Shown: positions 14,931 through 63,353, counted from the stretch's first letter. The stretch: 64,000 nt of DNA from Escherichia coli (GCF_050920415.1 NZ_CP169309.1), one strand, 5' to 3'. The notes: generated by a model from the sequence alone, not told the origin. A program made the numbers and translations.

Positions 14931-18638
<3,708 letters not shown>

Positions 18639-37909: not shown

Positions 37910-38524
37910 TTTACACTTCCTCCGGATTAGCCAGATAACCAGTGGTATCGCCGGTCGGCTGTTGGCGTTAGGTTTGATAACGATATTGGGTTTTGTGAAA
38001 TGCGCGCGCGGCAGTGGCGCGACGGCAGCCAGAGTGCCGTGCTTCTGGCGCAGCTCTTCAATTGGACCGAACTCAAGTGCACGCAGCGGGCAGGATTCGA
38101 CGCATATGGGTTGTTTCCCCTCGGCGACGCGCGAATAACAACCATCGCACTTCGTCATGTGCCCTTTTTCAGCATTGTACTGTGGTGCGCCGTACGGACA
38201 AGCCATGTGGCAGTAGCGGCAGCCGATACAAACATCTTCATCAACCACCACAAAGCCATCTTCACGCTTATGCATTGCGCCGCTGGGGCAGACTTTTGTA
38301 CATGCGGGGTCATCGCAATGGTTACAGGAGATGGAGAGATAATAAGCGAACACGTTCTGGTGCCAGACGCCATTATCTTCCTGCCAGTCGCCGCCAGCGT
38401 ATTCATAAATACGGCGGAAACTGACTTCCGGGCCAAGATCTTTAAAATCTTTGCACGCCAGTTCGCAGGTTTTACAGCCTGTACAGCGGCTGGAATCGAT
38501 AAAAAATCCATATTGTGTGGTCAT
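37910..38524 (-). CDS. ynfG: DMSO-reductase-family Fe-S subunit YnfG; codons 1-191 intact, C-terminus frame-altered, no stop codon, reads in-frame into ynfH
   Basis: Four-cluster ferredoxin motifs (CTGCKTCELAC, CNHCDDPACTKVCP, CIGCRYCHMACP, CDGCYSRV...C). After ...KPNANSRP the frame gives AIPLVIWLIRRKCK and then the ynfH Met, where a DmsB-like ...PTGDTTGYLANPEEV-stop is expected. Confidence 0.8.
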
Positions 38525-41018: not shown

Positions 41019-43206
41019 TTATATTTTTTCGATCTCGACCAGATTAGTGTGCTGCGGGTTTCCCTTCGCCAGTGGTGAAGGGCGCAGAGTGGTTAGCGTA
41101 TTCACACAGCCGCCGTGGTCGATTTTATCGCCAGACATATTGGCCTCGTGCCAGGCTCCCTGGCCCATAGCGCTAACTCCAGGGAGAATGCGTGGTGTCA
41201 CTTTGGCTGGTAGCCGAACTTCGCCACGATGGTTAAACACCCGCACCATATCGCCGTTGGCAATCCCACGTTTCTGTGCATCTATAGGGTTGATCCACAC
41301 TTCCTGACGGCAGGCTGCCTTCAGGACATCAATGTTGCCGTAGGTCGAGTGAGTACGAGATTTGTAATGGAAACCAAACAGTTGTAGCGGGAAGGTACTA
41401 CGTTCAGGGGCGTCCCAGCCTTCGAAGGTTGAGGCATAAACCGGCAGTGGGCTTATTACTTCATCTTTTTCGAGTTCCCAGGTACGGGCAATTTCCGCCA
41501 GTTTGCTGGAATAAATTTCGATCTTACCGGAAGGCGTTTTAAGTGGATTTGTCTCGGGGTCGTCACGAAATGCTTTGTAGGCGATAAAATGACCATTAGG
41601 ATCCTTACGCTTATAGATACCCATTTTTTTCAGTTCGTCGTAAGACGGTAATGCCGGATCTTTGGCAAGCATTTTGGCGTACAGATGTTGTAACCATTGT
41701 TCCTGAGTGCGGCCTTCAGTGAATTTTTGATAGACGTCAGGGCCAAGACGTTTCGCGACTTCACTTAGGATCCAGTAAATCGGTTTGCGTTCGAATTTTT
41801 CGCTGGTGACTGGCTGGAGGAAAATGAGATATCCCATGTTACCGGCGTAATCGTTAGGAATAATATCTTCCTGCTCAACGGTCATCAGGTCTGGCAGCAG
41901 AATGTCGGCATATTTTGCCGATGAGGTCATAAAGTTTTCGATGACCACAATCATTTCGCATTTCGATTCGTCCTGCAGAATTTCATGCGTTTTGTTAATG
42001 TCAGAATGCTGATTAACCAGGGTATTTCCCGCGTAGTTCCAGATGAACTTAATGGGCACATCCAGTTTATCTTTGCCGCGGACGCCGTCGCGGATTGCCG
42101 TCATTTGCGGGCCATGATCGATAGCATCCGTCCAGCTGAAGCAGGAGATTGATGTTTTGACCGGATTATCCAGCACCGGCAGGCGTTCTATGGTAATGGT
42201 ATAGGTGGATTCACGCGCGCCACTATTTCCGCCGCTGATGCCGACATTGCCCGTCAGAATAGGCAACATCGCAATAGCGCGTGCGGTCAGCTCACCGTTT
42301 GCCTGGCGTTGCGGTCCCCAACCCTGGCAGATATAAGCGGGTTTTGCTGTGCCGATTTCACGCGCCAGTTTGATGATACGGTCCACCGGGATACCGGTAA
42401 TTTGCGAAGCCCACTGCGGCGTTTTCGCTGTGTTATCATCACCTTCACCAAGAATATAGGCTTTATAGTGGCCATTTTTTGGTGCATCTGCGGGTAAGGT
42501 TTTTTCGTCATAACCGACGCAGTATTTATCGAGAAAAGGTTGATCAACGAGATTTTCGTTAATCAATGCCATCATTACTGCCGTAGGTGTAGGGCATGGC
42601 ACAGGAAATTTGCGCGGTGCTGTAGGAGCCATACTGGTTGAGTGAACCGCCGTAGCAGTTCATCAGGCGTTTGACCGCCGAGGCTGATGGCGAAGAGCGG
42701 GTCATATTGCCGCCAACGATCCCCGAAGAGTACTGAATATATACAGCCTCATTGCCATATTGTTCGACGGTTTTTTTCAGACTACTGGCGATAGTATCCA
42801 GGGCTTCATCCCAGCTAATCCGTTCGAATTTGCCTTCGCCGCGTTTGCCCACGCGTTTCATTGGGTAATTCAAGCGATCGGGATGATTAATACGCCGACG
42901 GATGGACCGACCGCGCAAACAGGCGCGTACTTGATGATTGCCATACTCGTCGCTGCCGGTGTTGTCAGTTTCCACCCAGGTGACTTCATTATCTTTAACA
43001 TGTAGACGAAGTGCACAGCGGCTACCACAGTTGACGGAACAGGCACCCCAGACCACTTTTTCGCTGGCCTGTTGTACCGCTGCCGCTGCACTGCGCAGGG
43101 TGAACGGTAAAGAAAAACCGCCTGCAGCCAGCGCCAGAGAACCTATCGCGGTAGATTTAACGAGTGTTCTGCGGCTGATGCCCACCATTTGTTCATTTTT
43201 GGACAT
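41019..43206 (-). pseudogene. ynfE: ynfE (DmsA paralogue) disrupted: N-terminal 215-codon ORF (42559..43206) and C-terminal 537-codon ORF (41019..42632) lie in different frames; about 80 codons are missing at the junction
   Basis: N-terminal ORF has Tat signal and Cys cluster and ends ...YGSNDGID-stop. C-terminal ORF resumes at ...LINENLVDQPFLDKYCVGYDEK. The intact paralogue ynfF in this same window has 80 residues between the equivalent NDG and LITENMVDQ. Confidence 0.75.
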
Positions 43207-45928: not shown

Positions 45929-46133
45929 GGACATAAATCCATTTTATCAATAAGATACAAGGAAGTGTCAGCTGACAAAAGGTATTCTATTTCATCTTTT
46001 GTCAACCATTCACGGCGCAAATATACGCCTTTTTTTGTGATCACTCCGGCTTTTTTCGATCTTCATACTTGTATGGTAGTAGCTCAGTTGCGTAGATTTC
46101 ATGCATCACGACAAGCGATGCAAGGAATCGAAC

Positions 46134-47348
46134 ATGAAGATCGTAAAGGCTGAAGTTTTTGTTACCTGTCCGGGGCGTAATTTCGTCACATTAAAAATCA
46201 CCACTGAGGACGGTATTACGGGCCTTGGGGATGCCACCCTCAATGGACGTGAGCTTTCCGTGGCCTCTTATTTGCAGGATCACCTTTGTCCGCAGCTTAT
46301 TGGTCGCGATGCACAGCGTATCGAAGATATCTGGCAGTTTTTCTATAAAGGTGCTTACTGGCGTCGCGGTCCGGTGACGATGTCGGCCATTTCAGCGGTT
46401 GATATGGCGTTGTGGGATATTAAAGCCAAAGCTGCCAACATGCCGCTTTACCAGTTACTCGGCGGCGCGTCTCGTGAAGGGGTGATGGTTTATTGCCATA
46501 CCACCGGTCACAGTATTGATGAAGCTCTGGATGATTATGCCCGTCATCAGGAGCTGGGATTCAAAGCCATCCGCGTGCAGTGCGGAATCCCTGGTATGAA
46601 AACCACCTACGGCATGTCGAAAGGCAAAGGTCTGGCTTATGAACCCGCAACCAAAGGACAGTGGCCGGAAGAGCAGCTGTGGTCGACGGAGAAATACCTC
46701 GATTTCATGCCGAAATTGTTTGACGCGGTACGTAACAAGTTTGGTTTTAATGAACATTTGCTGCATGACATGCACCATCGCTTAACGCCTATTGAAGCGG
46801 CGCGCTTTGGTAAAAGCATTGAAGATTATCGCATGTTCTGGATGGAAGACCCGACGCCTGCGGAAAACCAGGAATGCTTCCGTCTCATTCGCCAACATAC
46901 CGTCACACCCATCGCGGTGGGTGAAGTCTTCAACAGCATCTGGGACTGCAAACAGCTGATTGAAGAACAACTTATCGACTATATCCGCACCACGCTGACT
47001 CACGCGGGGGGGATTACCGGTATGCGCCGGATTGCCGATTTTGCTTCGTTGTATCAGGTACGTACTGGCTCACACGGTCCTTCCGATTTGTCACCAGTCT
47101 GCATGGCTGCGGCGCTGCACTTTGATCTGTGGGTCCCCAATTTCGGTGTCCAGGAATACATGGGCTATTCCGAACAAATGCTCGAAGTCTTCCCGCACAA
47201 CTGGACTTTCGATAACGGCTATATGCATCCGGGAGACAAACCGGGTCTTGGCATCGAATTCGATGAAAAGCTGGCGGCGAAATATCCCTATGAACCTGCT
47301 TATCTGCCAGTCGCACGTCTGGAAGATGGCACGCTGTGGAACTGGTAA
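46134..47348 (+). CDS. rspA: Starvation-sensing protein RspA, enolase-superfamily mannonate dehydratase-like (404 aa)
   Basis: [42 protein letters not shown] from internal ATG 46134. Confidence 0.9.
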
Positions 47349-47359
47349 GGAGTAAGATA

Positions 47360-48379
47360 ATGAAAAGCATTTTAATTGAAAAACCGAATCAACTGGCAAT
47401 TATCGAACGCGAAATACCCACCCCGTCAGCGGGTGAAGTTCGAGTAAAAGTGAAACTTGCCGGAATTTGTGGTTCAGATAGCCATATTTATCGTGGGCAT
47501 AATCCTTTTGCGAAATATCCGCGCGTCATTGGACATGAATTCTTTGGCGTCATTGATGCAGTGGGTGAAGGCGTGGAAAGCGACAGAGTCGGTGAACGCG
47601 TTGCTGTCGATCCGGTGGTCAGCTGTGGGCATTGCTATCCGTGCTCTATAGGTAAGCCGAACGTTTGTACGACACTGGCTGTATTAGGTGTGCACGCTGA
47701 CGGTGGTTTCAGTGAATATGCCGTGGTGCCGGCAAAAAATGCGTGGAAAATTCCTGAAGCAGTGGCCGATCAATATGCGGTGATGATCGAACCTTTTACC
47801 ATTGCGGCTAACGTTACCGGTCATGGTCAACCGACTGAAAATGATACCGTTCTGGTTTACGGTGCAGGTCCAATCGGCCTGACGATCGTTCAGGTATTAA
47901 AAGGCGTCTATAACGTTAAGAATGTGATTGTTGCCGATCGCATTGATGAACGACTGGAAAAAGCGAAAGAGAGCGGGGCAGACTGGGCGATTAATAACAG
48001 CCAGACACCGCTTGGCGAGATTTTCGCTGAAAAAGGCATAAAGCCGACATTAATTATCGATGCGGCTTGTCATCCTTCAATCCTGAAAGAAGCCGTAACG
48101 CTGGCTTCTCCAGCGGCACGTATTGTATTGATGGGCTTCTCCAGTGAACCGTCTGCAGTGATTCAGCAAGGAATTACCGGAAAAGAACTCTCTATTTTCT
48201 CTTCACGCTTAAATGCAAATAAATTCCCGGTCGTTATCGACTGGTTAAGTAAAGGGTTAATTAAACCAGAAAAACTAATTACCCATACGTTTGATTTCCA
48301 GCATGTTGCTGATGCCATTAGTTTATTTGAACAGGATCAAAAGCATTGCTGCAAAGTCTTACTCACTTTTTCTGAATAA
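47360..48379 (+). CDS. rspB: Zn-dependent medium-chain dehydrogenase RspB (339 aa)
   Basis: MDR motifs GICGSDSH and GHEFFG; start at internal ATG 47360. Confidence 0.9.
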   Translation: MKSILIEKPNQLAIIEREIPTPSAGEVRVKVKLAGICGSDSHIYRGHNPFAKYPRVIGHEFFGVIDAVGEGVESDRVGERVAVDPVVSCGHCYPCSIGKPNVCTTLAVLGVHADGGFSEYAVVPAKNAWKIPEAVADQYAVMIEPFTIAANVTGHGQPTENDTVLVYGAGPIGLTIVQVLKGVYNVKNVIVADRIDERLEKAKESGADWAINNSQTPLGEIFAEKGIKPTLIIDAACHPSILKEAVTLASPAARIVLMGFSSEPSAVIQQGITGKELSIFSSRLNANKFPVVIDWLSKGLIKPEKLITHTFDFQHVADAISLFEQDQKHCCKVLLTFSE

Positions 48380-48436
48380 TACCAATAACGGCGAGTAAGT
48401 AGTACGCATCTTACCTCTTTTTTAGAGATAACCATT

Positions 48437-48544
48437 ATGACAATAGAAAAACACGAAAGAAGCACTAAGGATTTGGTGAAAGCAGCAGTATCGGGATGGC
48501 TGGGCACTGCGCTTGAATTCATGGATTTCAAGAGTCATGAATAG
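48437..48544 (+). pseudogene. ydfJ: 5' remnant (35 codons) of MFS transporter gene ydfJ, truncated by prophage integration
   Basis: Short ORF MTIEKHERSTKDLVKAAVSGWLGTALEFMDFKSHE-stop lying directly before the phage integrase gene. In K-12 the Qin prophage interrupts ydfJ at this locus. Confidence 0.5.
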
Positions 48545-48566
48545 TAACCATTTGATAATTAATAAA

Positions 48567-49862
48567 TTAATTTTTCACCACCTCGTTTTGGGGCATGGTT
48601 GGGGCAAACTCGCTTAGCTGTGTATTTAACAGGGCTACCTGTGCATTATTGTTTTCAGACATCCATTTCCCGTATACCTGAAACACCATTTGCGCATCTG
48701 CATGTCCCATCTGGTTTGCTATGAATGCCGGGTTGGCACCGGCTGTCAACGACCAGCAGGCATAAGTATGTCTCGACTGATATGATTTGCGGTGGCGGAG
48801 GCCAGCGCGCTTTATCGCTGCGTCCCACATCTGCCTTATTGAGTCAACGGTAAAATGGTCACCATAATTTTTTACTCTCGCTGACACTTCAGGTTGAAAA
48901 ACAAAGGTGCATTTTTGTTTTTCTGTTCTGCCGAACTCTCTGAGGTGAACGTCAATAATATGTTCTTTGCTCAGCCTCGTTAGTGTCATCTGACTCCTGA
49001 GAGCGTCGATTGCAGGCTTGATAAGGTGAATTACCCGATTGGTACCAGCCTGTGTTTTCGGTACCGTAAAACGATCTTTTGCTAAATTTCTCCTGATCAT
49101 CATTGTTCCATTTTTCAGATCTATGTCCTCCCACCCAAGCGCACACAGTTCACCAGGGCGAATGCCTGTATAAACAGAAACACACCATAAATTTTTGGCC
49201 TGCTGATTTCTGCAGGCGTCGATAAGACGGATAAATTCCTCCCGTGAAAGAGGATCAGGAATGGTTCTTGATTCCTTTAATGGCGAGATCCCCTTAAACG
49301 GATTATCTGCCAGGTAACCGTTATCAACACCAAACTGGAACACGGCGTTAAGATTTGTCATGTAATTATTTACAGTTACAGCCGATCTCCCTGGTTGTGT
49401 AACAATATAGTTACTTTTGGGGATCTGGTATCCAGTCAGTAGCTCTTTACGAACCTCCAGTAATTTTTCTTTATTAATCGATGAGGCAAGATTTTTTTCA
49501 CCGATTATGCTCAGGATATTTTTGATGACGGCACGGTATGTGTTGAGTGATGCTTTGGCGACTTCAGTTTCTTTCAGTGCCAGAAATTTTTCAGCCAGTT
49601 CTTTTATGGTTAAATCTTGTCGGGCCTCACCAAATTTTTCCAGATTGCGTGAGGAGGGAAACTGTTTTGCATAGTCGAAAACACCAGTTTTTATTGCGTA
49701 ACAAACAGAGGAGCGTAGTTCACCTGCAACGCGCCTGTTTTTTGCTGTGTCAGGAACCCCCAGATTTTCCCTGACTCTTACGCCTTTATAAACAAACCAG
49801 ATACGTAATTTCCCTCCATGGTTTTCCACGCCTGTCGGATATTTCATTTCAACTTCTCTCAT
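48567..49862 (-). CDS. Prophage tyrosine integrase (site-specific recombinase)
   Basis: C-terminal catalytic region with RHTYACW (His-x-x-Arg), GHADAQM and VYGKW (Tyr nucleophile); phage Int N-terminal arm-binding-type domain. True start may be the internal ATG giving MKYPTGVENHGG. Confidence 0.85.
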   Translation of the reverse strand: MREVEMKYPTGVENHGGKLRIWFVYKGVRVRENLGVPDTAKNRRVAGELRSSVCYAIKTGVFDYAKQFPSSRNLEKFGEARQDLTIKELAEKFLALKETEVAKASLNTYRAVIKNILSIIGEKNLASSINKEKLLEVRKELLTGYQIPKSNYIVTQPGRSAVTVNNYMTNLNAVFQFGVDNGYLADNPFKGISPLKESRTIPDPLSREEFIRLIDACRNQQAKNLWCVSVYTGIRPGELCALGWEDIDLKNGTMMIRRNLAKDRFTVPKTQAGTNRVIHLIKPAIDALRSQMTLTRLSKEHIIDVHLREFGRTEKQKCTFVFQPEVSARVKNYGDHFTVDSIRQMWDAAIKRAGLRHRKSYQSRHTYACWSLTAGANPAFIANQMGHADAQMVFQVYGKWMSENNNAQVALLNTQLSEFAPTMPQNEVVKN

Positions 49863-49881
49863 TAGTTAGTGTGGCTTTTAG

Positions 49882-50133
49882 TCAAGTAAGATGACGTCTT
49901 GGTCTCGCTGATGCCTGGCGCTCAATCCAGCGATCAATTTCTTCCAGGTTGTAAAAGCATGGACTGTTATCCCATGGCATACCGTCATGAGCGACATGCT
50001 TATATTCCCTTCCTTCCATAAACGATTTTTCCCGGGCCTTTTTTAACGTACCTTTTTTTATTCCTTTCAGCGCAATTAACTGCTCTTCGGATACCCATTT
50101 GCCGGGAGAGACAATCATGATTACTTCGCTCAT
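49882..50133 (-). CDS. Excisionase-like small protein (putative Xis)
   Basis: 83-codon ORF immediately upstream of int on the same strand; small basic protein. Function inferred from position and size. Confidence 0.55.
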   Translation of the reverse strand: MSEVIMIVSPGKWVSEEQLIALKGIKKGTLKKAREKSFMEGREYKHVAHDGMPWDNSPCFYNLEEIDRWIERQASARPRRHLT

Positions 50134-50205
50134 CGATTTCTTTATCTCTTACATCAGACGAGCGCCGGTTGCAGAATACCAGTCACAACCGGCGACAGTT
50201 GAACA

Positions 50206-52677
50206 TTAAGAATCAGCCTGACTCGGGATCAGTTTTTGCCAGATAACTGAAACGTATTTTGCCTGGTAACGGGCGTCATCAAGTGCATTATGGCGCTCAC
50301 CTTCGAATGGAATAGCCGTTCTGGCATCGAAGTCTATGGCTTTCCCCAGCTCAACGATTGTGCGTACATCGCGATCGTTGTAGTAACGCCACGGGCAGGG
50401 GATCCCCTGCCGTTCGTATGAACGGCGCAAAATCGTGTTGTCGAAGTTGGCTCCATTTCCCCAGACCTGAACAAAAAATTCACCGGAGTTTTCGTCGATA
50501 AATTCCCGCAATTGTAACAGTGCATCATCTAACGGGATTTCATCGGTCATAATGGCAGATTGCGCTTCGCGTGATTGCTTAAGCCACCATTTAATGGTGT
50601 CCCGATCAATGACTCCGCCAGCAGTTTCCAGATCGATAGTCTTACTAAATTCCGGTCCCATATCTCCGGTTTGCGGATCGAAAAATATTGCACCTATTGA
50701 GATAATCGGGGCATCAGGATTTTTTCCCATGGTTTCAAGGTCGATCATTAGATGGTCACACGTCCTGCTGGTGGATGTGATAACGTGATGACCGTTCACC
50801 GCAATTAAGGGATCTGCCGTCTCGCCAGTTTCATTATTGCTGGCGTGGTCCTGAGCGCTGCCAGCATTCTCCTTGTGTGGATGTTCAGCGCCTTCCATTT
50901 CCTCCGGATCATTTTCCTGAACTTCAACCTGATTCTCTTCATCGAATGTTTCTTGGTATGTTGCGTCGCCCATCACCGCACCACAATCAGGGCAGTTGCC
51001 GCCGCCGGTCTGACCGCATGCGGTGCAGACTTTTTCCGCTTCCTGTTGCGCTACTGGCTCAGGTTGTTTCGTTTCTGGCTCGTTTTGTAACGCATTTGGG
51101 CTGTTTTGTTCTGCTTTCTGGTCGTTCTGTTCCGTTTCTTGCTGGTTCTGATTCACTGAATCGCGGGTTTCAATCCCCTTCACCCATTTCGGATCATTCG
51201 GGTCGCTAATCCCTGCAACAAATTCACCACGTGATACAGCAAGCAACTTATCGGCGTCAGGCTGGCTGATATTGGCTGCCTGCATAATTTTGTTTACTTC
51301 GTCAGCGGTAACTTTTACCGGCTCTGGTTGTGCGGTCGTGTCAGATGCACCAGTATTTTGTTGTGAACCTGAGTATGTACCGTTTTTACGGGCAAAATAT
51401 TCTTCTTTCGTGATTTCAGTAGCCCCTGCAGTCAGCGCCTTATTCAGACCAGAAAGTTTGTTTGCGCGACCATATTTTTCGCCATCCTTGTCGGTGAAGA
51501 GGAAGTAGAACGGCCCCTCACGCTCTACAGATGGTTCGACTTCCACTTTGCATTCGGTTTTTTCGTTGTCCGGAATTGCCGTTTCCACTGCATCAGTTTC
51601 TGGTACTGGCGACGAGAGAGTATCAGTTGCGCTCTGATTTCTTCCTTCATCTTCAAACACGCCCTTTGTAGTCAGGTATTCAGTAATGTATTTGTTCAGT
51701 GTCACAGGGTCTTTGTGAATGTCGATCGGACGTTCACGGACAAGGCCAAAAATAGTCTGGCGGTCGTAGCGAAGGGCATCAGGCTGTTTGCGCATTGATG
51801 CCGAGATACGCTTCCAGTCTTCGCGGTCGTTGTCGATAACTTCATTTTTTGCCCAGCGATGGATGCTGCCGTCAATGTTTCCGGCATCCACATCACCAGG
51901 CCAGAGAGCGTAGGCCAGTTCGTCATCCAGTGTTTTCCATGTCTGCTTGTATTCGCGATGAGTGGCAGCAATGACCGGGCTGATTTTTCCTGTTGAATTG
52001 TCAGTGTACTGTTGATTGGCTCTGGCGCGGGCGAGATCAACAACAGACGTGTATTTTCCGGTTTCCTTGCGTTCACCTTCGCGACGTTTTTTCCAGATGC
52101 GCATCTCTGCCTGAATTTCGGGCCATTTAGCACCAGGAATACATTTATGCTTAACCCACCCAATGGCGTGCAACTTAAGCTCCGGATACATGGCGTTAAC
52201 TTCTGGCATTTTCATCAACGCTTCAACGATATGTCCGTCGAATGTTGCCATGTCTTCCTGCAACAATTCCTGTGCGCTAATAACCATATCAACGGTGATG
52301 TTTTCACATGTGTCGAACTTAACCAGGACCGCGTTCTGTACTTCAGGGGACAGCTTGTCAAAATTGACGTTCATCGGATCGGATTCTGGTTCGACCGGGA
52401 CAAAGGAAGCGCCTTCCTCATCCCAGCGGTTTTCCAGCATATATTCGGTATCCCAGGAGTCGATGGCAGGGCGGGGCATGCCGGGTTTATCCTCGCAGAC
52501 AAGAAATTTATAAGCGCAGTCCTGAGCAGCCGGATATTGCTCCAGGAATTGCCAGGTAAATTTGGCTCGGGCGCGACGTTCGTCGCCGGCTTCAATGGCA
52601 GTGGCTACAGCGACTGCACCTTCTTCCTTTATTGCCTGTTCGTCCGGAATGGCGGCGCAAATAAAGACTTTACTCAT
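50206..52677 (-). CDS. Prophage RecE-like protein (823 aa): acidic/Gln-rich linker with CxxC...CxxC zinc ribbon and C-terminal DEDDh-type 3'-5' exonuclease motifs
   Basis: Linker ...DPNDPKWVKGIETRD...CTACGQTGGGNCPDCGAVMGDATYQETFDEE... resembles the RecE linker as I recall it. C-terminus has Exo I motif MIDLETMG, Exo II-like FVQVWGNGANFD and Exo III HNALDDARY. Confidence 0.6.
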   Translation of the reverse strand: MSKVFICAAIPDEQAIKEEGAVAVATAIEAGDERRARAKFTWQFLEQYPAAQDCAYKFLVCEDKPGMPRPAIDSWDTEYMLENRWDEEGASFVPVEPESDPMNVNFDKLSPEVQNAVLVKFDTCENITVDMVISAQELLQEDMATFDGHIVEALMKMPEVNAMYPELKLHAIGWVKHKCIPGAKWPEIQAEMRIWKKRREGERKETGKYTSVVDLARARANQQYTDNSTGKISPVIAATHREYKQTWKTLDDELAYALWPGDVDAGNIDGSIHRWAKNEVIDNDREDWKRISASMRKQPDALRYDRQTIFGLVRERPIDIHKDPVTLNKYITEYLTTKGVFEDEGRNQSATDTLSSPVPETDAVETAIPDNEKTECKVEVEPSVEREGPFYFLFTDKDGEKYGRANKLSGLNKALTAGATEITKEEYFARKNGTYSGSQQNTGASDTTAQPEPVKVTADEVNKIMQAANISQPDADKLLAVSRGEFVAGISDPNDPKWVKGIETRDSVNQNQQETEQNDQKAEQNSPNALQNEPETKQPEPVAQQEAEKVCTACGQTGGGNCPDCGAVMGDATYQETFDEENQVEVQENDPEEMEGAEHPHKENAGSAQDHASNNETGETADPLIAVNGHHVITSTSRTCDHLMIDLETMGKNPDAPIISIGAIFFDPQTGDMGPEFSKTIDLETAGGVIDRDTIKWWLKQSREAQSAIMTDEIPLDDALLQLREFIDENSGEFFVQVWGNGANFDNTILRRSYERQGIPCPWRYYNDRDVRTIVELGKAIDFDARTAIPFEGERHNALDDARYQAKYVSVIWQKLIPSQADS

Positions 52678-52961: not shown

Positions 52962-53898
52962 TGCCAGTATCCTTTTTGCATCAGACGTAAACGGGCCAGC
53001 ATTGATACAATGCATATTTGATTTAATAGCTCCCGTTCGTGTTTTCTCTTATTAATGGCATCTTCAGTAAATACAGGGTTACTGATTCTGACACCAATTT
53101 CAAAACAACCTTCAGACGTATTAACGTTTGGTAATAACGTTTCCATTATCGCGTCCTCAACAATGAATTTTGTGATACGGTGCCTGGTGCCTCCAGGTGA
53201 CGTTAACCAGTTAACAATTAACGCCGGATACAGAGAACCCACCCATAAGAACCAATACGGAAGTCAACTGGCCTTTTTAACTGTTCCGCGTGCGCTTAGC
53301 CGCATTCACCGCATCACAAAATTCACTTTAAAAAGGGCGGCAGAGCAGTCACGGAGTAAAACTGATACCGCCAAACGTCACCAGAAAATTGATAACAGAG
53401 GGCGTTGCAGCGGGGTTGCCACTTAAGCGTATGGTCAACCTGACAACCCGGTGTCCTCAACGGGGAAGGAATAACCCCGCCATACTTACCGCCGCGCCAT
53501 TTCGCGGATTGCCACAACCGGAAGCGCACAGACGAAGATGTCAGTGGTACACAACAAAGGGAGGAATGACTTCGCCGTGCGCTTTCGCGTTATGCCCTGA
53601 CTTTTCAGGGATATATCCTTTCAGTAAACTGTTTGTGCCGGATTCTTATCCGTGTCCGGCGCACGACCACGCGCTGTCACGTGTGGTCTCCATTCTCAAC
53701 CAGTAACCTCAATGGAGGATAAAATTAAAATGGTCAGCAAACTAAATTAGACTCGCTGGAAGATTCATTATTAAACAGCGCGTTTAAATTATATTCTTGA
53801 ATGTTTTGGGGATAACCTTGCTGCTGAGGAAGGCTATCCAAACCATGTCGATGGTTTCGAAGCGATATATCTTTATCTATCCCGTAAACATGGATGGA

Positions 53899-56137: not shown

Positions 56138-56962
56138 ATGAGCAGCAAGCTTCATGGTCTTGTCTGGGAAGGGTGCGCCTTCACCGGCATGATCTTATCC
56201 AGGGTGGCAGTAATGGCTCGCCTTGCAGACTACAGCAATGACGAAGGTGTGTCATGGCCTGCAGTGGAGACCATTCGTCGTCAGATTGGGGCAAAGAGTG
56301 AATCAACGGTTAAAGCGGCGATAGCGGAACTGGAAAAGAACGGCTGGCTGACGAAGGAGGAGCGTAAGGTCGGTGGGCGTAATGAAAGCAATATCTACCG
56401 CCTTAATGTGGAAAAACTCGAAGCAGCAGCTGAGGCGGCGCGTGAGGCATATAAACCGAAAAGAAAAATTAGCCCGGCAAAAAATGACCCGTTAACAGTT
56501 GACCAGTCAAATATTGCCCCCTCAACGGTTGACCCGTCAAATTTTGATGGATCAACCGTTGGTAAAAAACAGCCGGTTAGGGGGGCGATGGTTGGCCCCG
56601 ATCCGTCAGTATTAAAACCTGATCCGTCAGATAAAAGATCTTTTCGTCCGGAAGCTTCGCAACCGGACCCGCAGACGGCTGAACAGGATTTTTTAACCCG
56701 ACATCCTGATGCGGTTGTGTTTAGTGCAAAAAAACGTCAGTGGGGAACTCAGGAGGATTTGGCATGCGCACAGTGGATCTGGGGGCGAATCGTGAGTCTT
56801 TACGAACAGGCCGCCAGCGATGATGGCGAGATCACCCGACCGAAAGAACCCAACTGGACAGCATGGGCCAATGACGTGCGCATAATGCGGATGCTGGATG
56901 GCAGAACTCACAGACAAATCTGTGAACCGCCCCGGGTTTCCTGGAGAGTGTTTTATCTGTGA
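56138..56962 (+). pseudogene. Phage replication-initiator (O-like, N-terminal winged-HTH) gene, 5' part; interrupted by an IS element after codon 261
   Basis: N-terminus ...AVMARLADYSNDEGVSWPAVETIRRQIGAKSESTVKAAIAELEKNGWL is typical of phage replisome-organiser proteins. The frame ends inside the IS inverted repeat; the original frame resumes at 58235 and stops at 58414. Confidence 0.65.
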
Positions 56963-56964
56963 AC

Positions 56965-57831
56965 TCAGGCTGCCAGATCATTGTTTCCGATGGAAGCATA
57001 ATAAGCTTTTTCTGCTTCTGCCGGAGGAGTATGGCCCAGCCTTCCCAGCAATCGTCGATTGTTATACCAGTCCACCCACGTGAGTGTGGCCAGTTCCACT
57101 TCTGCACGGTTTTTCCAGCTCTTACGGTGTATTACCTCCGCTTTGTAAAGACCATTGATGCTCTCAGCCATCGCGTTGTCATACGAGTCGCCTGTACTCC
57201 CTGTTGATGCCAGCAGTTTTGCTTCTTTTAGTCGCTCCGTATAGGCCAGTGACACATACTGAGAGCCTTTATCGCTGTGATGGATGGTGCCAGACGGACG
57301 ACGGGCCCACAACGCCTGCTCCAGCGCATCCAGCACGAATGTCGTTTCCATAGACGATGAGACCCGCCACCCCACGATGTATCCGGCAAACACATCAATG
57401 ATGAACGCCACATAGACGAAGCCCTGCCATGTGCTGACGTAAGTAAAATCAGCCACCCACAGCTGGTCAGGACGTTCTGCCACGAACTGACGGTTTACGC
57501 GGTCACCTGTGGCAACGGTTTTCCGGCTGACGGTAGTGCGGACCTTTTTACCCCGGAGAACACCGGCAAGTCCCATAACCGCCATGAGGCGCGCCACTGT
57601 ACATCTGGCCACCCTGATTCCTTCCCGTAACAACTGACGCCAGACTTTACGCACACCGTACACCTGATGATTTTCATCGTATACGCGCTGTATCTCTCTC
57701 TTCAGCCAGTCATCGCGCTGCGCACGGGCACTGCGTTTATCAGGATGATGCCGCTGCTGCTGACAATGGTAATACGTTGACGGGGCAATATGCAGTTCAC
57801 TGCATACCGGTCCGACCCCCGTACTGCTCAC
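56965..57831 (-). CDS. IS3-family transposase OrfB (DDE integrase core)
   Basis: DDE core ...LWVADFTYVSTWQGFVYVAFIIDVFAGYIVGW...HHSDKGSQY...DSYDNAMAESINGLYKAE. In this copy the body is in the same frame as orfA rather than the -1 frame. Confidence 0.85.
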   Translation of the reverse strand: MSSTGVGPVCSELHIAPSTYYHCQQQRHHPDKRSARAQRDDWLKREIQRVYDENHQVYGVRKVWRQLLREGIRVARCTVARLMAVMGLAGVLRGKKVRTTVSRKTVATGDRVNRQFVAERPDQLWVADFTYVSTWQGFVYVAFIIDVFAGYIVGWRVSSSMETTFVLDALEQALWARRPSGTIHHSDKGSQYVSLAYTERLKEAKLLASTGSTGDSYDNAMAESINGLYKAEVIHRKSWKNRAEVELATLTWVDWYNNRRLLGRLGHTPPAEAEKAYYASIGNNDLAA

Positions 57832-57852
57832 GCAGCTTATCCAGCAGTGGCA

Positions 57853-58179
57853 TTATTTTTTCCAGAGGCGGTCGAACTCCGCCTTCGCAAAATAAGCGGA
57901 AGCCTGGCGAAGGATATCGTTACTGCGGCGCAGTTCACGATTTTCACGTTCCAGCTCTTTCAGACGCTGACGTTCAGCGGTGGTGAGCCCACCATCACCG
58001 CTCCCGGTATCCCTCTCATGCTGGCGAACCCAGACACGCAGAGTCTCTGGCGTACAGCCAATCTTTGGAGCAATGGAACAAATTGCCGCCCATTGTGAGT
58101 CATATTCGCCCTGACTTTCCAGAACCATACGAACTGCGCGTTGACGGACTTCGGGGGAAAAACGAGTATTTTTAGTCAT
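57853..58179 (-). CDS. IS3-family transposase OrfA (HTH plus leucine zipper), 108 aa
   Basis: [57 protein letters not shown]...; ends WKK-stop at an A-rich run. Confidence 0.85.
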
Positions 58180-58234
58180 CCTGTTTACCTCTTTCTCAGG
58201 AAGTTTAGTCTCCAGGATTTCCGGGGCGGTTCAC

Positions 58235-61398: not shown

Positions 61399-62097
61399 TT
61401 ATACACCTAAATGCGCTAGATCGCTAACGTCTGAATATGGGCAGCTATGGGAGGTAGTCCAGTTTTCAAGGGTCACGTTAGGAGTATAGTCGACCACGAA
61501 CTGACCATCATTTTCAGGATCTTCCCGTCGATGATAAACATTGAGTGTAAATAGGCCTGCATATTTCGCGAGCATATGTTCAATGGTCTCTCTGCTCTTG
61601 AAAAAGTTCGCTTTAAGAACCTCTAACGGAACCTTACGAGAGCGGGCTTGGGCAAAAACCCACGCGTAAGCCGGATCAAAATAGACGTAATTCAGTGCTA
61701 CCTGATAACCAGCCTTCAGGGCCAGATCAAAGTTTCTCTCCGCAATACCTATACTGGAGAAAGTAGAGTCCATAACAATGGGATAGCCTTCAGATAGCGC
61801 TTTTTTGTAGATAAAATCGACCATTCTGGAGGCAGGTCTCTGATAGTCCACAGAGTTCTCTTCATTGTAGTAGGGGAACCACCAGCGAAAATCATCAGCA
61901 TCAATTCGAACAATGTTTGTGATGCCATGTTGTTCTAAAAGACGATTTAAGAGCTCGGTTTTACCTGCAGCAGGCGAACCAGCCATAAACAGGACGTGCT
62001 TGGCATTGGCATTTTTGTTTGCTGTTACGTAACTATAAACGTAAGGGCGAATTGCCTCACCAAACTCAGGCAGTATGGTTTCAAGTTCTTTTTTCAT
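61399..62097 (-). CDS. P-loop kinase of the zeta-toxin / polynucleotide-kinase superfamily (232 aa)
   Basis: Walker A MAGSPAAGKTEL followed by IVRIDADDFR (compare zeta toxin GGQPGSGKTS...VIVIDNDTFK and T4 Pnk GCPGSGKST...NRDDYR), then IVMDSTFSS and ALKAGYQVALNYVYFDP. Confidence 0.55.
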   Translation of the reverse strand: MKKELETILPEFGEAIRPYVYSYVTANKNANAKHVLFMAGSPAAGKTELLNRLLEQHGITNIVRIDADDFRWWFPYYNEENSVDYQRPASRMVDFIYKKALSEGYPIVMDSTFSSIGIAERNFDLALKAGYQVALNYVYFDPAYAWVFAQARSRKVPLEVLKANFFKSRETIEHMLAKYAGLFTLNVYHRREDPENDGQFVVDYTPNVTLENWTTSHSCPYSDVSDLAHLGV

Positions 62098-62911: not shown

Positions 62912-63122
62912 TTTTATATTGGCGAGGTGACGGGAGTTAAGTAGGATTGCTGCGGGTGCTTGAGGCTATCTGTCTCAGGCATGAATACCAACGGCAGATA
63001 GAGAAAAGCCCCAGTTAACATTACGCGTCCTGCAAGACGCCTAACATTAATCTGAGGCCATATCTATGACTTGCACACGTAGGTTAGCCTCTTACGTGCC
63101 GAAAGGCAAGGAGAAGCAGGCT

Positions 63123-63353
63123 ATGAAGCAGCATAAGGCGATGTTAATCGCCCTGATTGTCATCTGTTTAACTGTCATTGTGACGGCACTGGTAACGAGG
63201 AAAGATCTCTGTGAGGTACGAATCCGAACCAGCCAAACGGAGGTCGCTGTCTTCACAGCTTACGAACCTGAGGAGTTAGAGACCAGGCGAGGGAGAAATC
63301 CCTCGCCACCTCTGATGAGTCAGGCATCCTCAATGCACCCACACTTAACTTGA
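63123..63353 (+). CDS. Hok/Gef-family type I toxin homologue with a 25-codon C-terminal extension (76 codons to the first stop)
   Basis: MKQHKAMLIALIVICLTVIVTALVTRKDLCEVRIRTSQTEVAVFTAYEPEE aligns with Hok (...[24 protein letters not shown]...). After ...EPEE the next codon is TTA (Leu) and the frame runs to 63353. Confidence 0.75.
   Translation: MKQHKAMLIALIVICLTVIVTALVTRKDLCEVRIRTSQTEVAVFTAYEPEELETRRGRNPSPPLMSQASSMHPHLT

Follow-up and report, generated by a model that had tools for sequence, protein, structure and literature searches.

Gene organisation at the locus

The window analysed here is a 64,000-nucleotide stretch of the Escherichia coli sequence NZ_CP169309.1 (GCF_050920415.1), and all positions are counted from its first letter. 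The gene order across the region of interest is rspA, rspB, the 5′ end of ydfJ, int, xis, an exonuclease gene and dicB, followed by cI/cro-like genes (Table 1). The original prediction described a 35-codon ydfJ fragment directly abutting an integrase gene. Both the ORF and its adjacency to int were found, with 22 bp separating the stop codon of the ORF from that of int, but only 31 of the 35 codons belong to ydfJ, because the match to the uninterrupted ydfJ of an ST131 genome (455 codons, directly after rspB) diverges past 48529; codons 32-35 (KSHE) and the TAG stop are contributed by the P′ arm of the phage. Base-by-base alignment to the ST131 gene placed the native 5′ end of ydfJ at 48437-48529, with a synonymous T/C difference at 48520 as the sole mismatch. 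The homology proposed for 48437-48544 was therefore found to hold through 48529, or to 48532 if one mismatch is tolerated. A Pfam search with the product of the 35-codon ORF gave no match, as expected at 35 aa.

The insertion adjoins rspB and leaves a 427-codon 3′ part of ydfJ, which is the arrangement of Qin-type (PPydfJ) prophages. We regard the region as very probably the attL junction of such a lambdoid prophage, inserted in ydfJ.

Table 1. Features of the rspB-ydfJ junction and of the adjoining prophage in the window
Feature	Position	Strand	Description
ynfG	37911-38524	-	selenate/DMSO-reductase-like subunit
ynfE	41019-43206	-	selenate/DMSO-reductase-like subunit
rspA	46101-47348	+	
rspB	47336-48379	+	
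ydfJ-phage ORF	48437-48544	+	chimeric, 35 codons
Extended att	48514-48532		19 bp, imperfect, TGAATTCATGGATTTCAAG
attL common core	48519-48529		11 bp, TCATGGATTTC, single occurrence in the window
P′ arm	48530-48606		starts next to the core, overlaps the 3′ end of int
Candidate accessory-protein or Int site	48546-48555	+	AACCATTTGA
Candidate arm-type Int sites	48588-48595 and 48599-48606	-	two copies of TTGGGGCA, 11 bp apart
int	48567-49847	-	tyrosine integrase, 426 aa
xis	49882-50133	-	excisionase, 83 aa, DUF1233 family
Exonuclease ORF	50206-52677	-	823 aa, Rv2179c-like exonuclease domain (Pfam)
DicF sRNA	53335-53386	-	Rfam, 76.7 bits
IS element	56924-58233		IS3 family (IS629/IS1203 type), complete, 1310 bp
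IS orfB	56965-57831		
ALIL frameshift pseudoknot	57781-57898		
IS orfA	57853-58179		
Zeta-toxin-family gene	~61399-62097	-	mapped from 15146-15844 of the closest relative
sok antitoxin RNA	62954-63128	+	Rfam, 108 bits

Attachment sites and the distal end of the prophage

The attL core had been predicted to lie around 48520-48560, and it was located at the left edge of this interval. It reads T(C/T)ATGGATTTC and falls within ydfJ codons 28-31. The distal end lies beyond the window, as had been anticipated, and all facts on attR were taken from the closest complete genome, E. coli MFDS1022581 (NZ_CP169399.1), which is five SNPs and one IS away and matches 48000-50200 at 100.0%. The direct repeat sought at the other end of the prophage was present there: an identical 11 bp, TCATGGATTTC, at 2546697-2546707 of the record, 48,118 bp from attL. 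No additional copy of the core was found between attL and attR of NZ_CP169399.1, and this relative therefore carries a single prophage and no cluster. The 427-codon 3′ part of ydfJ, flagged in the relative as "missing N-terminus" and followed by ydfI, is located about 48 kb away from the junction and outside the window. When the two ydfJ halves of the relative were joined in silico at the core, an ORF of 455 aa was obtained, 452 residues of which are identical to ST131 YdfJ. With att sequences and ydfJ halves at both ends, the distal one read in the relative, the prediction of a prophage junction within ydfJ was upheld.

Compared with TTATGGATTTC, which occupies the same place in intact ydfJ (attB) and in the attP of phages mEp460_ev081 and HannyBb, the core is identical at 10 of 11 bases, the differing base being 48520. 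The four sites read GAAT-TCATGGATTTC-AAGAG for attL in the window, TGAA-TCATGGATTTC-CAGTT for attR in NZ_CP169399.1, GAAT-TTATGGATTTC-CAGTT for attB in ST131, and GTGAA-TTATGGATTTC-AAGAG for attP in both phages. As sequences, they are consistent with a conservative exchange within the core, and on this comparison the strand-exchange (overlap) region must lie inside the 11 bp. Around the core, attP and attB can be aligned over an extended imperfect att of 19 bp with one indel and one mismatch; its length is in line with that of the att sequence defined for ydfJ prophages, 18 or 19 bp (PMC8112680, S7 Fig legend). When the flanks of the core were inspected by eye for core-type sites forming an inverted repeat, just a 4-bp AATC/GATT palindrome came to light, which is too weak to count as a feature.

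In this lineage, both attL and attR have C as the second base of the core, at 48520, where the attL of K-12, the attB of ST131 and the attP of the free phages have T. The polymorphism is synonymous in ydfJ (TTC/TTT, Phe), and the C was either phage-borne or already present in the attB of the host.

Prevalence of the junction

Among 5426 complete E. coli genomes, the 161-bp attL junction was found at a coverage of at least 80% in 2712 (50%), and an uninterrupted attB in 2010 (37%). At least 80% of the 2.2-kb segment comprising rspB, the ydfJ 5′ end, int and xis was present in 2299 genomes (42%), a threshold that the truncated version of K-12 would narrowly miss. Identity of 99% or more over the 161-bp junction was seen in only 8 genomes.

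These data leave practically no room for the proposal that there is no real att junction here, and that the 35-codon ORF came to lie beside its neighbour by chance or through faulty assembly. The junction recurs in 2712 independent complete genomes and matches the attP × attB product predicted from free phages and empty sites, and nothing was found in favour of an artefact. The ydfJ junction is real but ordinary, since half of the complete genomes carry it and both the site and its att have been published (PMC8112680). Earlier publications already cover the ydfJ hotspot, the att sequence, the truncation in K-12, the integrase family and functional phages that carry this module. The minor refinements added here are the family-wide Tyr-for-His substitution in the integrase, the candidate arm sites in the 3′ end of int and the retention of ydfJ as the target in Shimwellia and Enterobacter, each of which is described below.

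Integrase and excisionase

The 426-aa numbering of the integrase was adopted because all 14 aligned relatives begin at the second ATG (MKYPTG...); an upstream in-frame ATG at 49862 would give a protein of 431 aa (ORF 48567-49862). The RefSeq annotation of the closest genome also starts int at 49847. Pfam searches identified an N-terminal arm-binding domain (Arm-DNA-bind_2, PF12167; 82.8 bits against a cut-off of 22, full profile 1-65) and a Phage_integrase domain (PF00589; 66.9 bits against a cut-off of 27.1, residues 206-397 of the 431-aa form), and the protein matched the PHROG_1 integrases with E = 2.4e-75. Its domains are arm-binding, core-binding region and catalytic. The prediction that the gene is full length and free of internal truncations was confirmed by alignment with the integrases of isolated phages: all 426 residues aligned without gaps, at 98-99% identity, to those of HannyBb (6 differences) and mEp460_ev081 (9 differences), and tblastn found the integrases of PhiR42_1 and Tritos to be about 98% identical. 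Exact copies of the 426-aa protein occur on 417 contigs, and 5989 sequences belong to its 90%-identity cluster. Three of the 6-9 differences from the isolated-phage proteins fall within the last seven residues, where the tail, together with the P′ arm, represents a minority allele (QNEVVKN versus HNEAMKN).

The catalytic residues were placed by HMMER alignment to Tn1549 Int structures and by a 15-member family alignment reaching down to 60% identity. They are R230, K264, Y356 (the His position), R359, H382 and Y392, and all are invariant in the 15 relatives. Five of the six residues of the canonical Arg-Lys-His-Arg-His/Trp-Tyr signature are therefore present, the first His being substituted by Tyr356 throughout the family. 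Accordingly, the His-x-x-Arg motif that had been reported for this protein was not borne out: in both alignments the position reads Tyr356-Gln-Ser-Arg359, opposite H-A-M-R of Tn1549 Int. As it is invariant across the family, including isolated phages, Tyr356 characterises the lineage and is no sign of damage. The Tyr nucleophile noted at the same time is present as Y392; it lies one position past the Tyr mutated in structure 6emy, yet it is the sole Tyr of that segment. The search against solved structures returned distant matches only (Tn1549 Int and XerA), with no significant match to lambda Int; these served to position the catalytic residues but gave no basis for assigning the family.

The xis gene is situated directly upstream of int in the same leftward operon, with 20-35 bp between the end of xis and the start of int. 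Its product matched the excisionase profile PF06806 with 108.1 bits against a cut-off of 22 (profile positions 1-69 of 70) and was also matched as a PHROG excisionase. Xis is identical at 83 of 83 residues to that of mEp460_ev081 and HannyBb, and the exact protein was found on at least 1000 contigs. In 48300-50400, a simple consensus scan found no promoter-like site on the minus strand for int/xis, and the consensus promoter and terminator scan of this interval gave fewer matches than shuffled sequences.

Candidate Int sites in the attachment arms

The P′ arm is colinear with the DNA 3′ of int in the attP of mEp460 and HannyBb. The stop codon of int is only 38 bp from the core, and the P′ arm therefore extends into the int coding sequence. 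The element AACCATTTGA in this arm is directly repeated in the P arm, 63 bp to the left of the core in the attR of the relative; at the same positions, mEp460 and HannyBb have AACTATTTGA and AACTATCTGA. The two candidate arm-type sites in the P′ arm read TGCCCCAA on the int strand and overlap the int codons A-P-T-M-P-Q. A second tandem pair of the TTGGGGCA type is found about 130 bp away on the opposite side of the core, in the P arm, both in the attR of the relative and in the free-phage attP of mEp460; its orientation and its 11-bp spacing are those of the first pair. In the free phages, the motifs of both arms keep their positions. We take the tandem TTGGGGCA motifs to be probable arm-type sites for the PF12167 domain.

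The excess of repeats within one attP is modest, the observed count being reached in 19 of 500 shuffles, and conservation across species is the stronger argument for the arm motifs. The TGCCCCA motif is kept in ydfJ-site relatives of Shimwellia and Enterobacter (Int identity 66-75%) and in a yecE-site relative (61%), and it is retained despite a residue change from M to V (ATG to GTG still gives TGCCCCA). Since the motifs overlap the int coding sequence, their conservation could be partly protein-driven. It is conceivable, if unlikely, that the invariant C-terminal A-P-x-M-P tail of the integrase family is constrained by the arm-type sites embedded in its own gene.

An Int homologue of 75% identity in Shimwellia blattae (locus L008, 2781-2967) and one of 66% in Enterobacter hormaechei (locus L009, 2787-2989) each adjoin an rspB homologue, a ydfJ 5′ end and a AAATCCAT core. 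Because they share the rspB-proximal site, targeting of ydfJ is conserved across genera. The 61%-identical relative (locus L010) is inserted at yecE instead.

Comparison with K-12 Qin and related phages

In K-12 MG1655, intQ is 1164 nt long, is annotated as 'missing N-terminus' and abuts an IS2 remnant; xis is absent and the exonuclease gene is truncated. The intQ translation aligns from about residue 42, the first ~41 codons, which encode part of the arm-binding domain, being missing. The original prediction, which gave Qin a truncated intQ at this same site, is thus correct in both annotation and alignment. Qin shares with the prophage described here its insertion point in ydfJ, the attL sequence to 10 bp beyond the core, the dicB/DicF module and the integrase lineage (about 98% identity over the ~385 residues retained by K-12). 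It differs in its length of about 20 kb and in the losses just listed, int, xis and the exonuclease gene all being whole in the window. The ydfJ prophage of this strain thus keeps the full integration/excision module lost from K-12 Qin, a finding of little import beyond annotation.

The ydfJ prophages of STEC and EPEC are likewise lambda-like and inserted in ydfJ (Nakamura et al. 2021, PMC8112680). The ydfJ prophage of the O26:H11 strain 11368 yielded an attP amplicon (PMC8112680), and one O26 protein belongs to the same 90%-identity cluster as the integrase described here. PPydfJ prophages harbour T3SS effector loci and are frequently clustered in groups of two to four (PMC8112680), the latter in contrast to the one prophage between one attL and one attR in the relative of the window.

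Phage mEp460_ev081 is a functional temperate phage from the infant gut virome, according to the literature. Together with HannyBb it shares with the window an identical Xis, the order exo-xis-int-attP and the arm motifs, its attP core being TTATGGATTTC. The genomes of mEp460_ev081, HannyBb, Tritos and PhiR42_1 are those of free phages, whereas the element in the window is an integrated one whose replication gene carries an IS; it further differs in the C at the second base of the core, where free phages have T, and in the variant allele of its P′ arm and Int C-terminal tail.

Several features follow the lambda paradigm. In lambda, the leftward operon ends with xis followed directly by int, attP is located beside int, and tandem repeated motifs in both arms flank a short core; the same geometry is seen here. 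The integrase, with its N-terminal arm-binding domain, would likewise be heterobivalent. Unlike in lambda, the arm-binding domain belongs to family PF12167, the first catalytic His is a Tyr, the candidate P′ arm sites overlap the int coding region, and the target is a protein-coding gene that is inactivated by integration.

The remainder of the prophage and its present state

In the relative, the prophage is about 48 kb long; in the genome of the window it is enlarged by an IS of 1.3 kb. Past the junction, the gene order in the relative is int, xis, exonuclease, dicB, a cI/LexA-like repressor, cro, an O-like replication gene and Q, followed by lysis, terminase, head, tail and tail-fibre genes, and then the 427-codon part of ydfJ and ydfI. 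The IS629-type element is flanked by a 3-bp CTG target duplication and cuts the O-like replication-initiation gene (PHROG_391, E = 2.7e-113) at about codon 263 of 320. The same IS junction was found in none of the complete E. coli genomes of the collection, including NZ_CP169399.1. Complete identity of the window with that genome was ruled out when an Rfam match to ALIL exposed the extra IS; the two differ by five SNPs and the 1310-bp IS. With the IS629-type element in its O-like replication gene, the prophage is otherwise decaying.

DicF lies downstream of dicB in the leftward operon, and the two together constitute a Qin-type dicBF cell-division-inhibition module, here combined with intact int and xis.

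It could be argued that only the int-attL module is an old resident at this site and that homologous recombination among lambdoid prophages brought in or remodelled the remainder of the 48 kb, in which case the present element would not stem from one integration. Lambdoid prophages at ydfJ do take part in inter-prophage recombination and inversions (PMC8112680), only a handful of the 2712 genomes with the junction closely match this window across it, and the modules are mosaic: dicB/DicF as in Qin, lambda-like late genes, hok/sok and a zeta-toxin gene. Such a history is compatible with an Int-mediated origin of the junction itself, and the expected core is found at both ends; we consider it doubtful, though a serious alternative to a single integration.

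A different objection is that the int ORF is whole while the element is grounded, with Int, Xis or the att arms impaired or unexpressed and the prophage a fixed scar like Qin of K-12. The IS in the O-like gene agrees with this, as do the IS21 copy, the frameshifted portal gene and the truncated tail-fibre gene annotated in the prophage of the relative. So do the 6-9 substitutions in Int relative to isolated phages, with their C-terminal cluster, and the rare P′ arm allele. Excision of Qin was undetectable in K-12, as its authors had expected with intQ inactive (PMC3105296). However, the failure in K-12 is explained by the 5′ truncation of its intQ and the loss of xis, and neither applies to the prophage in the window; the catalytic and family-invariant residues of Int are all free of substitutions, the Xis sequence is the one found in isolated phages, and the same core stands at both ends. 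We therefore think it unlikely that the element is grounded, and retain the reading of a ydfJ prophage with a whole integration/excision module.

Predicted integration and excision

The arrangement can be accounted for by the following model. The attP of a phage encoding this integrase would have recombined with the identical 11-bp core in ydfJ codons 28-31, splitting the gene into the 31-codon stub by rspB and the 427-codon remainder about 48 kb away. Int would act as a lambda-type heterobivalent tyrosine recombinase, its N-terminal domain binding the tandem TTGGGGCA arm sites of the P and P′ arms and its catalytic domain cutting and rejoining within the core. Int and Xis, presumably with host bending proteins, would then recombine attL with attR to release a circle and regenerate an intact 455-aa ydfJ, the predicted products being an attB of ...GAATTCATGGATTTCCAG... 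and an attP of ...ATGAATCATGGATTTCAAGAG.... In the genome of the window itself, the distal end should read TCATGGATTTC and then CAGTTATATTCGCTC, about 49.4 kb downstream. Expression of int and xis would come from the leftward early operon upon inactivation of the cI/LexA-like repressor, and the prophage is predicted to be still capable of excision.

On the sequence evidence, ydfJ is in principle restorable by excision in this strain. Because the IS629-type element interrupts the O-like replication gene, excision would probably lead to curing and restoration of ydfJ and not to phage. A replication-dead but excision-competent element might even act as a reversible or one-way switch of ydfJ, in the style of 'active lysogeny', and excision would then restore a transporter beside the rspAB/ydfI sugar-acid genes without phage production. 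We rate this very unlikely, its sole support being that int, xis and the att sites are intact.

Other features of the window

In the closest genome, the hok/gef counterpart of the sok antitoxin RNA is listed as a pseudogene truncated at its C-terminus. The zeta-toxin-family gene, identified from the annotation of the relative, lies in the early-right region of the prophage, and it is possible that this gene and two neighbouring hypothetical genes constitute toxin-antitoxin or defence cargo. ynfG and ynfE are frameshifted pseudogenes according to the annotation of the closest genome, and these frameshifts may be either real or assembly indels.
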